Below, piece by piece: positions 31,215 through 61,904 of a stretch of DNA of 64,000 nucleotides. Position 1 is the stretch's first letter. Every line of letters starts with the position of its first letter. Under the pieces are notes generated by a model. The model was not told the DNA's origin, made no database searches, and worked only from the letters and a program-made list of their open reading frames with translations. Source of the stretch: Escherichia coli (GTDB lineage: Bacteria; Pseudomonadota; Gammaproteobacteria; Enterobacterales; Enterobacteriaceae). Location of the stretch: NCBI RefSeq assembly GCF_048403405.1, contig NZ_CP183129.1, one strand, 5' to 3'. The position numbers were made by a program, and so were the translations under genes.

Positions 31215-31400
31215 ATTCGATATCCGCGCCATTACCTGTCATCATGTGACTGCTCCCCGCCCTGTCGGGCGAGGCTTCCCACTTCTTAAGCCGCAACCGT
31301 CTGTGTGACGGATTTACGCTGGCCTCCATGGGCAGAAACGACGAGTCCCGCCGCTTGTAATTCCAGTATGCCCTTGCGTTTGATGTTGAGCGCCGCGTTG
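31215..31400 (-). ncRNA. Candidate TnpB-associated omega/right-end RNA (inferred, boundaries unknown)
   Basis: By analogy with characterised TnpB systems the guide RNA overlaps the tnpB 3' end and the right-end hairpin; not directly recognisable from sequence. Confidence 0.3.
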
Positions 31401-32455
31401 ATATCGCGGTCATGTTCAACTCCACACTCTGGACACTGCCAGATGCGCTTATGTAATGGCATCTCCGACATTTTGTGACCGCAGCAGTGGCAGGTCTTCG
31501 AACTGGCGAACCATTGATCCAGTTTCACCAGATGCACACCTTTCTCTGTTGCTTTGTATTCCAGTTTTGTGATGAATCCAGACCATCCAGCATCGCCTAT
31601 CGCACGAGCCAGATGGTGATTTTTCATCATATTTGCCGTTTTCAATGTCTCGACAATTACCGCTTGGTTTTCGTCAACAATTGCGCGAGATAACTTGTGC
31701 TGGAAATCGGCACGGGCACTGGCTACCCGTTCGTGAACGGCTGCAAGTTGTATTCTGGCTTTGCGCCTGTTTGCGCTCCCTTTTTTCTTACGGGACAGTG
31801 CTTTCTGCTTCCGGCGCAGGTTGCGACTTGCATTGATTAGGTGGCGGGGACTGGCAATTTTATTGCCGTCCGATTTGATGACAAAATGCGCCAGCCCCAT
31901 ATCCAGCCCTGTCACATTTGATATCAGTGCGGGCTTTGCCGGCGCTTCCATCCCGTCGTCACAGAGTAACGACGCGTAGTATTTCCCGGTTGCGCTGCGG
32001 CTCAACGTGATACTTTTCAGCATTCCCGTAATTTCACGATGTAAACGCGCTTCAATCGGCAAGATTTTCGGTATTTTTATCGCACCATCAAGGACTTTTA
32101 TGCCAACACAATGATAGCTCGATTGTCTGCCGTGTTTACTTTTAAAGGTTGGTTTACCTGCTTTCAGTTTCGGATTGAAAAAGTTAGAAAAAGCCACGTC
32201 GAGGTTAATTACCGCCTGCTGCAACGCAATAGAATCATATTCTTTAAGCCATCCATACCGGCGGGATTTCTTCGCCACTGCAAGCAGTGGTTTGAGGTCT
32301 TTACGCGGGTTTAAATTTACGCGGTGCCGCTGGTAAGAATGTTTCTTGATATGCAGAGCTTTGTTGTACGCAAAACGCACTGCACCGAACTGGGCGTTGA
32401 TAAATTCAGCCTGTTCTGGTGTCGGGTAGATGCGTACTTTTGTTGCTCTTAACAT
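31286..32455 (-). CDS. tnpB: TnpB (OrfB) RNA-guided endonuclease-family protein
   Basis: 389 aa; MLRATKVRIYPTPEQAEFIN N-terminus; C-terminal zinc ribbon CHCCGH...CPECG and RuvC-III-like DRDINAALNI. Confidence 0.9.
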   Translation of the reverse strand: MLRATKVRIYPTPEQAEFINAQFGAVRFAYNKALHIKKHSYQRHRVNLNPRKDLKPLLAVAKKSRRYGWLKEYDSIALQQAVINLDVAFSNFFNPKLKAGKPTFKSKHGRQSSYHCVGIKVLDGAIKIPKILPIEARLHREITGMLKSITLSRSATGKYYASLLCDDGMEAPAKPALISNVTGLDMGLAHFVIKSDGNKIASPRHLINASRNLRRKQKALSRKKKGSANRRKARIQLAAVHERVASARADFQHKLSRAIVDENQAVIVETLKTANMMKNHHLARAIGDAGWSGFITKLEYKATEKGVHLVKLDQWFASSKTCHCCGHKMSEMPLHKRIWQCPECGVEHDRDINAALNIKRKGILELQAAGLVVSAHGGQRKSVTQTVAA

Positions 32456-32511
32456 AATCAGCGCTCATTGATATAATGCTTTTATTTTAACACTTTAGGT
32501 AAATATATCAA

Positions 32512-32937
32512 TTGAGTAATCATGATGATTTACTGGCGGGATTCCTCCGCAAACGACACAGTGTCAGTAAGCTGGTTGTGCACCTTATTTTTACGACAAA
32601 GTATCGACGTAAACTATTCGACAGTCAGATGATCGCTCAGTTGCGTGAGGCTTTTGGCTCCGCTGCGGCAAAGCTTGAATGCGAAATTATTGAGATGGAC
32701 GGGGAGCCAGACCATGTACACCTGCTGGTTGCCTACCCGCCAAAACTGGCGGTCAGTGTGATGGTCAATAATTTAAAATCGGTATCATCACGTTTGCTAC
32801 GCCAGCAGAACGCGCATTTACGTATGCAGAGTAAAACGGGGCTTTTGTGGTCGAGATCGTACTTTGTCTGTAGCACCGGAGAGGCAACGATTGAAACGCT
32901 CAGAGCCTACGTTCAGAGTCAGTCAACACCTGATTGA
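32512..32937 (+). CDS. tnpA: IS200/IS605-family transposase TnpA (HUH/Y1)
   Basis: HUH motif HVHLLVAYPPK and conserved TKYRR; first in-frame start is TTG at 32512, so the start is uncertain. Confidence 0.8.
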   Translation: MSNHDDLLAGFLRKRHSVSKLVVHLIFTTKYRRKLFDSQMIAQLREAFGSAAAKLECEIIEMDGEPDHVHLLVAYPPKLAVSVMVNNLKSVSSRLLRQQNAHLRMQSKTGLLWSRSYFVCSTGEATIETLRAYVQSQSTPD

Positions 32938-41789: not shown

Positions 41790-44423
41790 TTATTTGGGCA
41801 GCGCAGTTCCCCATTCACGCCACTCTTTCGGTTCACTTTCCTGCAACAGGAAGTGCTTGCCTTCCTGGGCTTTCGGTGCCAGTGGCGTACCCGGAGGCGT
41901 GGCGAAGGCGATGCCGCCACGGATAAACTGGTTAAAGGTGCCGGTTTTCACTACGCCGCCCGTCAGACCAAAGTCCAGACTATAACCCGATGCCAACCAG
42001 AAGACGGAATTGTTACGCACCAGGTGTTGATAGCGTTTACTGATGCGCATCGCAATCATCACGCGATCTGACAATGTCCCCAGCGTCATACCTGTAACCG
42101 TACCGACTTCCAGACCACGGAACAGCACAGGTGTACCGATGCCTAACGAACCGGCTTCCGGCGCTTCAACAATAATGCTCAAGCCATCCAGGTAACGCGA
42201 ATCAGTAATGGTAGCCTCTTGTAATTCAAAGTCGCGCCGAGGATTGCCCCGGCCTGGTTCGACGTTGATATACGGCTGGAGGATAGTATCAAGATGCTCA
42301 ACGCCAGCTGCCGAAATTTGCGGTGTGACCACTGAGAAGCGCGTACCACCGCGAGCAAAGGTCTGGACATATTCCGGATAGAGCACCGCCTTTGCCTGTA
42401 CTTCATTGCGCGCGGTAATCAGATCCAGCGTCTGGATTTGCCCGATATCAATACCGAGATAGCGAATTGGCATCCCGACCGCCAGTTTTCCGGCATCGAA
42501 AGCGTGAAGCGTAATCTGCCCGCCAACCGCACGGGCTGCTGTTTCGGAAGCATACAGAATACGCTTGTCGCCTTTACGCTGACTGGCGCTGGCACCGCTG
42601 AGGTTATCGAAGCTAATAGCCCCCTTTAATGCTCTGGAGAGCGGGGATGCCTGTACAGTCAGACCACTACCATTCAGCTGAACTTTCGCCCCACCTTCTG
42701 CCCAGAACACGCTGTTGCTGGTCAGAAGGTTGCGATACTCCGGCTTAATATGCAGATCGATATCAAACGCGTTAGCTCGCGGACGCACGGTAATAACTTC
42801 ACCAACTTCAAATTTACGGTACAGCACTACCGATCCTGCCTGCACATCCGGCAGCGTCTCTGCACTCAAACTCACGGTTGTGGTGGGTAAATCGCTAAGG
42901 CTGTTCTCCAGCGCTTTTTCCAGATTGGCATACAGTGGATAGCTGGCTTTCATCTCGCCTTTATCGCCTGGCAGAATACGTATCCCGCCGTTAATCCATT
43001 CTGAGGCGCTGGCACCAAGAAACTCAACGCCATCCAGCCCCACCTTCACGTCGACACGGCTGTTGACGACAAATTTGCTATCGCCTTTTACCAGTTCGCG
43101 ATGCTGAGGCTCGATGGCGACGGTAAAGGTAACGCCTTTGCTGGTGAGTTTACGATCAATAACCTGGCCTACCTGCACGCCGTGAAGAATGAGCGGCTGA
43201 CCAGCATCAATGCCGTAACTTTCTGGTGCTGTCAGGGTCAGTGTCAGAACATCCGGCTCTTGTAGCAGGGCTTTTTCACCTGGCACAACAACGAACTCTT
43301 TGCGTGGCTCGCCATCGCCGGGCACCAACTCAAAGGTTTTTCCGGTCAGCAGGGCGCTGAGATTGGCATCGCTAAGGGATAATTTCGGGTTGCGTAATTC
43401 GATGCGGGTATTTTCACGAAGCAGGGTGACGACGCTGGGATCAACGGTCATTTCCCCAGTGACTTTACCACCAGGATTTAAATCCAGTTTAGTCAGCTGT
43501 CCGACTTCCAGCCCCTGATACATTAACGGCGTCGAGTCGGCGGTTAATCCGGCCCCACTCGGCAGTTCCAGTTTGATTATTACGCCACGCTGGCTATGGG
43601 CCAGGTCTTCATACAGACCAAAGGTATCTTCCGCCTCGGCAGGTTTCGACTCTTCTGGTGAATCGAAGGCAATCGCACCGTTAACCAGTGCCGCCAGACT
43701 TTCCAGTTTCACCTTCGCGCCACTGATACTGACGTTGGCATCAACGCCGGAAACGTTCCAGAAACGGCTACCTTTTTTCACCAGGTCGGTAAAACGCCGC
43801 TCGATCAGGACATCAATCACCACGCCTTGCTTGTTGGGATTGATGGCATAGTCGTAGACTTTTCCCACCGGGATCTTACGGAAATAGACCAATGAACCGC
43901 TGTTCAGTGAACCGAGATCGGGGGCTTGCAGGTGGATCATCAGATCGCCATTGTCCAGCCGATATTTCGGTTGGGTATCGAGTGCGACAAAGTGATCCTG
44001 CTCTTTACCTTTACCTGGCATCATGCCGATATAGTTACCACCGACGAGGGCATCCAGCCCGGAGACACCTGCCAGCGAGGCCTTTGGCGTCACCAGCCAG
44101 AACTGTGTCTCTTCGCGCAGCGCATCTTTCATATCGGACTTGATGCTGACCTTGACTTCAATCTTACGAAGATCGTCGCTCAGGCTGATATCCTGCACAG
44201 TTCCGACTTCAACGCCCTGATAACGAACAGGCGTACGGCCTGGAACAATACCATCCGCCGACATAAAGTCGATGGTGACGGTATTACCCCGGTCCTGATA
44301 ACTATCCCAAATCAGCCAACCGGCAATCATTAGCGCGATGAATGGCAGCAGCCAGAAAGGTGAGATACGGCGTTTATTTTTAATCTGCGCTTCAGTCGTC
44401 GAAGCGGGCGTTTCCTGACTCAT
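41790..44423 (-). CDS. letB: Multi-MCE-domain lipid transport protein LetB (YebT)
   Basis: 877 aa from MSQETPAST; N-terminal TM helix then repeated MCE domains. Confidence 0.9.
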
Positions 44424-45675
44424 GTGCATCCCAAAGTAAGCGGCTGTCCAGCCATTCCACAGCAAGAATAGTCAAAATTACCGCTGCGCCGAAATAAAAC
44501 GCAGCCGGTCCCATAGTAAAAGCGAGGATCTGATCGCGATTAATCAGCGACATGGTTAAAGATATGACAAACAGGTCGAGCATCGACCAGCGACCAATCC
44601 AGGTCACCATCCGCAGTAACAGAATGCGTGTGCGTAAACCTTGCTGGCATTTAAAATGAATACTCAACAGTAAAGTGAACATGACGATCACTTTAGTAAA
44701 CGGTACCAGAATACTGGCGATAAACACGATTCCGGCGACCGCAATGTTGCTACTTGCCAGCGACATAATCCCGGAAAGAATTGTATCTTCCTGCCGGCCA
44801 CCATTCAGATAAATGATAGAAATAGGCAACAGGTTGGCAGGTAACAATAAAACGATTGACGCTAACAGCGCCGCCCAGCATTTTTGCAGACTATGACGGC
44901 GACGCAGGCGTAGCGGGATATGGCAACGCGGGCAGCGACCACGCTGATCAGGATAGCCGGTAAAATGGCACCCAAGACAGACACGGAGTTTCTCGTCTCT
45001 ACAGGTAGCGGGGCGCTGTGGATAAAATCGCTCCCACAGTTCTTCGACATTGAGATGTGACAACGTCACCGTCGTTAAAATCACTAACGCCACAAAAGAG
45101 AACAAGCCGACACCCGCCTGGATATGGGCATAATCCTGTACCTTTATAGAAGCAACGCCAATGCCGACCAGGTAGATATCGAGCATTACCCACTCTTTCA
45201 GTCGCTCAAGCATCAGCAGTACCGGACGTAGATTCATTCCCAGTCGGTTACCAAACCATAAATAAGCTATGGAGGTCACCAGAATGAGGGGGGCACCAAT
45301 AACGCAGAAAAAGACCATTGATCCCGTTATCGCATCGCCCTGTTTGGTCATTTGCCAGATGCCTTGCATAACGTTGGCGTCAATACGAATGCCTAACAGC
45401 CAGATATGCAACAGCGGTTCGCCCCAGGCAAACGGCATAAGCAACAGCATAGTGAAGGCCATTGCCGCCAGGCGCGTTAGCGACCAGTCGCGCCCGTCAC
45501 GAATTTTTGCCTGACAGCGCGGACAATAGGCACTTTGATGAGAATTTATCTCGGGCAGGCTAAACAGCATGTCACATTGCGGGCAACGTTGGTAATCACC
45601 ACGCGGCAGTTCCTCACCGATAGCCCTCACTGTTATCTTTTTTGTCGGCGTAATTTGTGGTGTGTTAAGAGCCAT
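44392..45675 (-). CDS. letA: Inner-membrane protein LetA (YebS, PqiA family)
   Basis: 427 aa; zinc-ribbon CxxC pairs and TM segments; 3' end overlaps letB start by 32 nt. Confidence 0.9.
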
Positions 45676-59885: not shown

Positions 59886-60347
59886 TTGCTACCTCCTTTA
59901 TTATCGTTAACACCTCAACGTGCCAGATGTATTTTTGAATCGTCGTCCACAATCGAATCGATTCAGATAAGGGCTACAACCAAAAACCCCTGCGTTTCGC
60001 GATTTATTTTAGATATCGAAAAAATTATTTTATGTGATGAAGATCCGTAATTTAACTTTCGATTAGCAGAAATTTCGAAAGGTAAAATATCCTTGTCACA
60101 TTCGTTTGCAAAGGAAGGTAAATCTTTGCCAAATCAGAGGCGTCTCTGATATGTTTAACTCCCGTTTAACAACCATGGAGTATAGGGCAGTAGCCCGCAG
60201 TATGGATCGTCACCGACGTCATTTCAGCATCAGGCCTTTTAACGCCTGCCTTTCTGGCACTCTATGCCGCACCTTTCGTTTGCATTTTGTCGTTACGCCT
60301 GCATTATTTCTGGCGTCGAATAGCTATTCCTTAAGCAGGAGCTTGTC

Positions 60348-61904
60348 ATGGAATTCTTAATGGACCCCTCAATTTGGGCGGGGCTACTCACGCTTGTTGT
60401 TCTCGAAATTGTGCTGGGTATCGATAACCTGGTCTTCATCGCCATTCTTGCTGACAAACTGCCGCCAAAACAACGCGATAAAGCGCGTTTGCTGGGATTA
60501 TCACTGGCGCTGATTATGCGTCTGGGGCTGCTGTCGCTGATTTCATGGATGGTCACGCTGACCAAACCGCTATTTACCGTCATGGATTTCTCCTTCTCCG
60601 GACGCGACCTGATTATGTTGTTCGGGGGGATATTCTTGCTGTTCAAAGCAACAACCGAACTGCATGAACGGCTGGAAAACCGCGATCATGATTCCGGCCA
60701 CGGTAAAGGCTACGCCAGTTTCTGGGTGGTCGTCACACAGATTGTCATCCTTGACGCCGTCTTCTCATTGGATGCGGTAATTACGGCAGTAGGGATGGTT
60801 AACCATCTGCCGGTGATGATGGCGGCGGTAGTGATTGCGATGGCGGTTATGCTGCTGGCATCGAAACCGCTGACGCGATTTGTTAACCAGCATCCAACGG
60901 TGGTGGTGCTCTGTCTGAGCTTCCTGTTAATGATAGGTCTGAGTCTGGTGGCAGAAGGTTTCGGTTTCCACATTCCGAAAGGTTACCTGTATGCCGCGAT
61001 TGGCTTCTCGATCATCATCGAAGTGTTTAACCAGATTGCGCGTCGCAACTTTATTCGTCACCAGTCGACTTTGCCGCTGCGAGCGCGTACTGCCGATGCC
61101 ATCCTGCGTTTGATGGGCGGGAAACGTCAGGCCAATGTTCAGCACGATGCCGATAACCCGATGCCGATGCCGATCCCGGAAGGTGCGTTTGCCGAAGAAG
61201 AACGTTACATGATTAACGGCGTACTCACGCTGGCGTCGCGTTCTCTGCGCGGGATCATGACGCCGCGCGGTGAAATAAGCTGGGTTGACGCTAATCTCGG
61301 GGTCGATGAAATCCGCGAGCAGCTGCTCTCCTCACCGCACAGCCTGTTCCCGGTATGTCGCGGTGAACTGGATGAAATCATCGGAATCGTACGTGCTAAA
61401 GAACTGCTGGTGGCGCTGGAAGAGGGCGTTGATGTGGCGGCGATTGCTTCGGCGTCTCCGGCGATTATCGTTCCGGAAACCCTTGATCCGATCAACCTGC
61501 TGGGCGTGCTGCGTCGTGCTCGCGGGAGCTTTGTTATCGTGACCAACGAGTTTGGTGTGGTACAAGGTCTGGTCACGCCGCTGGATGTGCTGGAAGCCAT
61601 TGCGGGTGAATTCCCGGACGCTGACGAAACGCCGGAAATCATTACCGATGGTGACGGCTGGCTGGTAAAAGGCGGTACAGATTTGCATGCCTTGCAGCAG
61701 GCGCTTGATGTTGAGCACCTTGCCGATGACGATGATATCGCGACGGTCGCGGGCCTCGTGATCTCGGCAAATGGTCACATTCCCCGTGTGGGCGATGTGA
61801 TTGATGTAGGGCCACTGCATATCACCATCATTGAAGCCAATGATTATCGTGTTGATCTGGTTCGCATTGTTAAAGAGCAACCGGCGCACGATGAAGATGA
61901 GTAA
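60348..61904 (+). CDS. yoaE: TerC-family membrane protein with CBS/CorC domains
   Basis: 518 aa. Confidence 0.9.

Follow-up and report, generated by a model that had tools for sequence, protein, structure and literature searches.

The analysed stretch of the Escherichia coli chromosome, a window of 64,000 nt, carries the genes letA (yebS) and letB (yebT) on its minus strand, the end of the former being at the same time the beginning of the latter (Table 1). LetA belongs to the PqiA/YebS family by both profile collections: it matches TIGR00155 of NCBIfam with E = 4e-211 and 701 bits, against a cut-off of 260, and PF04403 of Pfam with E = 1e-81 in two PqiA modules. In LetB, the MlaD profile PF02470 (Pfam) matches in seven stretches with E = 1.6e-84, and the protein is of the LetB type, with an N-terminal membrane helix, seven MCE (MlaD) domains and a gene directly after letA. 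letB is read in the +1 frame relative to letA, whereby the second codon position of letA is the first of letB, and its reading frame is open from position 44465 according to the list of open reading frames and its translation. Within the overlap, the letA frame encodes a part of His418, LetA residues 419-427 and the stop codon, and the +1 frame encodes LetB residues 1-10 and two bases of codon 11.

Table 1. Features of the letA-letB junction and of a mobile element elsewhere in the window (positions count from the first letter of the window)
Feature	Position	Strand	Remarks
letA (yebS) CDS	44392..45675	minus	ATG start at 45675, TGA stop 44394-44392, 427 aa
letB (yebT) CDS	41790..44423	minus	ATG 44423-44421, 877 aa, seven MCE domains
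Dual-coding overlap	44392..44423	minus	32 nt, end of letA and beginning of letB
letB start codon AUG	44421..44423	minus	Last two bases of His418 (CAU) and first base of Glu419 (GAG)
Weak Shine-Dalgarno-like GGGA	44429..44432	minus	5 nt before the letB AUG; from the Trp415-Asp416 codons (UGG GAU)
Alternative in-frame ATG	44427..44429	minus	6 nt upstream of the letB AUG; would give MHMSQ... and a 38-nt overlap
Small hairpin CGCUUCG-ACGAC-UGAAGCG	44388..44406	minus	letA UGA stop within the 3' arm
TnpB-like gene	31286-32455	minus	Annotation of a RefSeq strain; both gene ends map to the window
tnpA	32512-32937	plus	Annotation of a RefSeq strain; both gene ends map to the window

The out-of-frame overlap of 32 nt had been reported in the initial annotation, and the open reading frames, the RefSeq annotation and the K-12 coordinates all place it at the same positions. 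A query of 1,001 nt around the junction was 100% identical to several RefSeq strains, one of which is annotated with the same CDS coordinates, and this query was found in 5424 of 5426 complete E. coli genomes. In K-12, yebS starts at 1916258 and, with its 1,284 nt, ends at 1917541, and yebT starts at 1917510, which again gives 32 nt (INRI-seq Table S2). The same length of overlap between letA and letB is stated by Santarossa et al. (Nature 2026); the overlap as such is thus ordinary and already known. Its length is not remarkable either, since ten stop-free codons past an internal AUG are expected with a probability of about (61/64)^10 = 0.6. Six co-directional overlaps occur in the window, four of 4 nt, one of 13 nt and the letA-letB overlap of 32 nt, which is the longest. 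The 13-nt case, the only other one above 4 nt, lies on the plus strand at 60348-60360, where the small ORF yoaL (60202-60360) overlaps the start of yoaE.

Apart from the overlaps, the annotation of the matching RefSeq strain contains an IS200/IS605-type element between yebE and ptrB (31286-32937 of the window; Table 1). Sequence NZ_CP062824.1, a perfect match at letAB, is offset by about 710 nt from the window over 9-20 kb, and in the first 9 kb of the window no probed 40-mer matches it exactly, so that annotation coordinates cannot be transferred there.

Placement of the letB start was examined by comparison with relatives. Eighty loci with LetA/PqiA relatives were gathered from contigs representing one genome per species, and the junction was analysed in 75 of them. 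The same 32-nt overlap, with the ATG at the same place, is present in 31 other species among the 75 loci compared. These include Escherichia, Citrobacter, Enterobacter, Kluyvera, Cedecea, Pluralibacter and Siccibacter, as well as Pantoea, Erwinia, Yersinia, Rahnella, Serratia, Hafnia and Rosenbergiella. In all 32 sequences of this group the His418 codon is CAU and never CAC, which preserves the letB AUG, and the UGGGA preceding it is likewise invariant throughout the 32 sequences. The position of the letB start is thus clearly under selection.

Could the overlap nevertheless be an artefact of annotation, with the true letB start lying downstream of the letA stop or at the ATG at 44429? Gene callers often misplace starts, E. 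coli does carry the second in-frame ATG, and the cell-free start mapping of INRI-seq scores a start over a window of 12-18 nt, which only marginally separates starts 6 nt apart. However, the ATG at 44423 is invariant, whereas the one at 44429 is lost in 10 of the 32 species, among them Enterobacter cloacae, Kluyvera, Cedecea and Pluralibacter, in which Asp416 is encoded by GAC instead of GAU. As a start codon it was rejected, being a triplet that comes and goes with this synonymous exchange and that has the GGG directly against it, which leaves no Shine-Dalgarno (SD) spacing; on this comparison we judge it incidental. A TTG at 44465 was likewise ruled out as the letB start by conservation and spacing. 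In Yersinia and Serratia, a stop codon just upstream closes the letB frame, so that the open frame begins with FGMHM and starts further 5' are excluded. In the downstream direction, the first in-frame start is M32 (44330), which lies within the transmembrane helix and after the conserved segment. The INRI-seq tables give no other start for yebT than the annotated one, which was detected in 5 of 5 replicates. Since the ATG at 44423 is conserved in every relative with this architecture, the alternatives are lost, closed off or situated in the helix, and the cell-free mapping detects it, the letB start at this ATG is secure and the artefact explanation can practically be dismissed. The placement given in the initial annotation was therefore right, and a letB start beyond the letA stop, which would have undone the overlap, is not what the alignment indicates.

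Double use of the sequence is clearly visible in its variability. Among the 32 sequences, third-position entropy in the flanks amounted to 0.92-1.07 bits where only letA is encoded and 1.29-1.34 bits where only letB is encoded, and within the overlap it fell about three-fold, to 0.30-0.39 bits at all three phases, as expected where no base is synonymous in both frames at once. With both frames open in the relatives and synonymous variation suppressed inside, the junction is a conserved dual-coding overlap. Within E. coli, 5161 of 5424 genomes have exactly the same 76-nt sequence at the junction, and in only 201 is the surrounding 1 kb at least 99% identical. LetA residues 419-427 and LetB residues 1-13 are not resolved in the cryo-EM structure.

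Across the relatives, the letB AUG keeps its distance from one conserved residue of LetA. Counted from the first base of the Trp codon (Trp415 in E. coli) in the terminal LetA motif RLxW(D/K/E)x(H/Y), it follows at a distance of 10 nt in 45 of the 75 loci, all of them from Enterobacterales or Pasteurellaceae, within which the spacing is constant, as illustrated by UGGGAUGCACAUG of E. coli and UGGAAAAUUUAUG of Haemophilus. W415 itself is invariant in the LetA family alignment. These loci differ only in how far LetA extends beyond the AUG, and the resulting overlaps measure 17, 20, 23, 26, 29, 32, 35, 41 and 50 nt. In Vibrio, the start is shifted downstream and an overlap of 8 nt is left. PqiAB-type loci overlap mostly by 8 or 4 nt and have a stronger SD, with a median of -5.9 kcal/mol vs. 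-4.0 kcal/mol for letB. Two loci of the set had irregular reading frames. In Mixta sp. (L019), the MCE ORF following letA ends at about 534 codons vs. about 867, which suggests a truncation or a frameshift, and in Yersinia aldovae (L036) the letA match has a length that is not a multiple of three and contains no intact letA ORF; it may be a pseudogene or reflect a sequencing error.

The most informative junctions are those of Pectobacterium zantedeschiae (L029:5203-5234) and P. betavasculorum (L034:5221-5252). Both carry a 16-nt tandem duplication (ACTGATGTGGGATAAC/ACTGATGTGGAATAAC) that covers the region of letA RLMWDN and of the letB start and shifts the LetA frame into an early stop with the tail NTDVE. 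The letB AUG now follows 2 nt after the letA stop; the overlap is gone, the LetB N-terminus is kept and the LetA tail is discarded. In Brenneria, the closest relative of Pectobacterium in the set, the overlap is 50 nt. The Pectobacterium junction is a natural de-overlap. Since Pectobacterium kept the LetB peptide and replaced the LetA tail, the constraint on the overlap would be driven by the LetB N-terminus and the letB start site and not by the LetA tail, which past the AUG is apparently disordered and dispensable.

The strength of the letB start was assessed in silico against 37 neighbouring genes with valid start codons, taken from the part of the window, only about 21 to 56 kb, that is collinear with the annotation strain. 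The duplex of the letB SD with the anti-SD has an energy of -4.0 kcal/mol, and 70% of these genes have a stronger one; letA is nearly devoid of an SD (-1.5 kcal/mol). The predicted opening energy from -20 to +15 around the letB AUG was 12.6 kcal/mol vs. a local median of 10.4 kcal/mol, corresponding to the 76th percentile of the 37 genes. A stem lies just upstream of the letB site (44441-44454 and neighbouring bases). The fold of the whole junction was no better than that of shuffled sequence (z = -0.22), and its centroid leaves both SD and AUG unpaired. Moreover, RNAalifold applied to 27 species found no consensus structure at the letA-letB junction, Rfam gave no match there, and consensus matches for a promoter or a terminator between letA and letB were at or below chance.

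A small hairpin encloses the letA stop codon (7 bp, CGCUUCG/UGAAGCG), with energies from -7.8 to -9.5 kcal/mol in Enterobacteriaceae. It is missing from Erwinia, Pantoea, Yersinia, Serratia and Hafnia, and was rejected as a conserved feature, being limited to Enterobacteriaceae; it is probably incidental. In one MAG (L015), a double change at a base pair of this hairpin (AGCUUC...GAAGCU) keeps the pairing, a single case being too few to speak of covariation.

The published start-mapping data provide an experimental comparison of the two sites. In INRI-seq, the native sequence that precedes the letB start on the synthetic mRNA is only 30 nt long, which precludes any translation of letA on this fragment. 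The start peaks in this cell-free assay were 30-69 CPM for letB vs. about 7 CPM for letA, and in the RNA pool the letA fragment was about 9 times commoner than that of letB (541 vs. 59 CPM). The letB start site thus works in vitro independently of letA translation, although relative strengths obtained with 183-nt fragments in a purified cell-free system may not carry over to the situation in vivo. In vivo Ribo-RET showed no peak at either the letA or the letB start, presumably owing to low expression. A search by gene name found no entries for yebS or yebT in the supplements of Mori 2021, Burkhardt 2017 and TRAINSPOTTER, and in those of Mori 2021 both are also missing under their b-numbers and UniProt ids.

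We consider it the most probable reading, at roughly 60%, that letB is translated mainly by de novo initiation at a site inside the last conserved codons of LetA, the overlap being an inherited dual-coding junction. The two genes form one operon, in which a weak, SD-like GGGA comes from the Trp-Asp codons UGG GAU and the AUG from the His and Glu codons (caU-Gag). The letA frame continues for ten codons past this AUG as a disordered tail, and the 32-nt overlap is the result. Ribosomes would bind the letB site directly from the cytoplasm and would not be handed over from letA. The need for about six LetB per LetA may be met by a letB site whose intrinsic strength exceeds that of the very weak letA site; indeed, a letA site of -1.5 kcal/mol next to a moderate letB site fits an excess of LetB. 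Any coupling to letA translation would be secondary, for example through elongating ribosomes that melt modest local structure or through retention of the mRNA at the membrane. The predominance of de novo initiation in vivo and the control of the protein ratio by unequal start strengths are our inference. The de-overlapped plasmid of Santarossa et al. is consistent with it: in their deep mutational scan, which reads LetA function, a plasmid with the two ORFs refactored as non-overlapping served as the wild-type backbone, which implies that a de-overlapped letAB construct works, albeit from a plasmid and not at the native expression level. Two observations count in the other direction. The weak letB SD and the above-median opening energy leave room for help from ribosomes translating letA, and selection on coupling, and not the inertia of a dual-coding sequence alone, may be the reason why so many genera have kept the overlap.

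The initial annotation had taken the overlap for translational coupling that fixes the LetA:LetB stoichiometry. Its anatomical part holds. The functional part is not supported, in view of the composition of the complex, the distance between stop and start, the independence of the letB site in vitro, the de-overlapped plasmid and the Pectobacterium junction. The LetAB complex seen by cryo-EM contains six LetB and one LetA, a ratio incompatible with a one-for-one hand-over, because re-initiation of this kind would yield no more than one of every six LetB required. The form of coupling closest to the original claim is termination-reinitiation, whereby ribosomes ending at the UGA (44394-44392) would move back 29 nt to the AUG at 44423, restart there and so fix the LetA:LetB ratio. 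It is favored by the overlap of the genes within one operon, by the conservation of the overlap and by the weak letB SD; moreover, post-termination ribosomes can scan a few tens of nucleotides either way. Quantitative data point against it. In the work of Tian & Salis, the only systematic measurement of re-initiation vs. distance that was found, the re-initiation coefficient is flat (0.0072) for d = 0 to 25 and peaks at d = -4. Beyond d = -10 it drops by 0.0004 per nt; the measurements reached d = -25, and extrapolation brings the coefficient to about zero at an overlap of some 25-28 nt. The authors recommend that genes overlap by 25 nt or more if re-initiation is to be avoided. By their definition the letA-letB junction has d = -32, which is outside the range of about -10 to +25 where re-initiation is measurable and past the point near d = -28 where the coefficient would vanish. 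The 6:1 complex, initiation at letB in vitro in the absence of letA translation and even more strongly than at letA, and the overlaps of 17 to 50 nt or none in the relatives, among which no distance is preserved, argue in the same direction. Genome-wide, the translation-efficiency ratios of overlapping ORF pairs vary as much as those of non-overlapping pairs and are not tighter. Overall, termination-reinitiation as the main route at this junction is unlikely.

A looser form of coupling deserves more weight. Local mRNA structure may partly restrain initiation at letB and be opened by ribosomes that elongate through the end of letA, in which case LetB output would increase with letA translation, though not one for one. 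Such unmasking is a recognized mechanism, and both the opening energy of 12.6 kcal/mol, in the 76th percentile of the 37 neighboring genes, and the stem just upstream of the site are compatible with it. On the other hand, the junction folds no better than chance with SD and AUG unpaired in the centroid, no structure is conserved across the 27 species, and a bare fragment is enough for the letB site to be used in vitro; we give a modest, secondary unmasking effect a low but appreciable probability. A more speculative view treats the fixed 10-nt placement of the AUG relative to the Trp codon, together with the run-on of LetA, as a functional device rather than as inertia. The ribosomes that complete letA would shield the letB site for a short time before letting go of a membrane-tethered mRNA; if this were true, letB would initiate mainly beside freshly inserted LetA, and six LetB would assemble around one LetA in cis. 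We hold this to be unlikely. De novo initiation within the dual-coding junction, with at most secondary help from letA ribosomes, would therefore remain the preferred explanation.

For annotation and engineering, the consequences are limited. The overlap has little significance beyond good annotation, and an overlap alone is no proof of stoichiometric coupling, least of all in a 1:6 complex. Anyone engineering letAB should note that changes in LetA codons 418-427 alter LetB residues 1-11 as well; the published mutational scan de-overlapped the genes for this reason. The comparison of letAB loci also illustrates how long overlaps arise, persist and are undone: the start is fixed, the LetA tail varies, and a duplication as in Pectobacterium separates the two frames.

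Among known systems, the letAB operon of E. coli K-12 (yebST; Isom et al. 2017/2020, Santarossa et al. 2026) is the same locus and has no structural difference from the one described here. Santarossa et al. 2026 removed the overlap for library construction, and the literature on letAB that was examined is silent on the role of the overlap. The classical translationally coupled junctions of the trpB-trpA and galT-galK type (ATGA/TAATG) resemble letA-letB in being co-directional and within one operon, and in having the ribosome-binding site of the second gene located in the first. As opposed to letA-letB, their stop and start codons lie within a few bases of each other, at the re-initiation peak (d = -4), whereas the letA stop lies 29 nt past the letB start, a distance beyond the range where re-initiation is measurable. 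The closest comparison is the paralogous pqiA-pqiB-pqiC operon of E. coli, in which, as in letAB, the gene of a PqiA-family membrane protein precedes that of a multi-MCE protein and the junctions are tight, pqiB and pqiC overlapping by 4 nt. In cell-free mapping, the isolated K-12 pqiB start is weak, at 0-14 CPM, and a further in-frame start, ATC at +27, is called (INRI-seq Tables S2, S3, S6), so that the in vitro pattern of pqiA/pqiB is opposite to that of letA/letB. The anatomy of the pqiA-pqiB junction is also unlike that of letA-letB: there is no overlap, the tail of pqiA contains a strong GAGGAG SD, and the ATG follows the stop codon after a gap of 4 nt.
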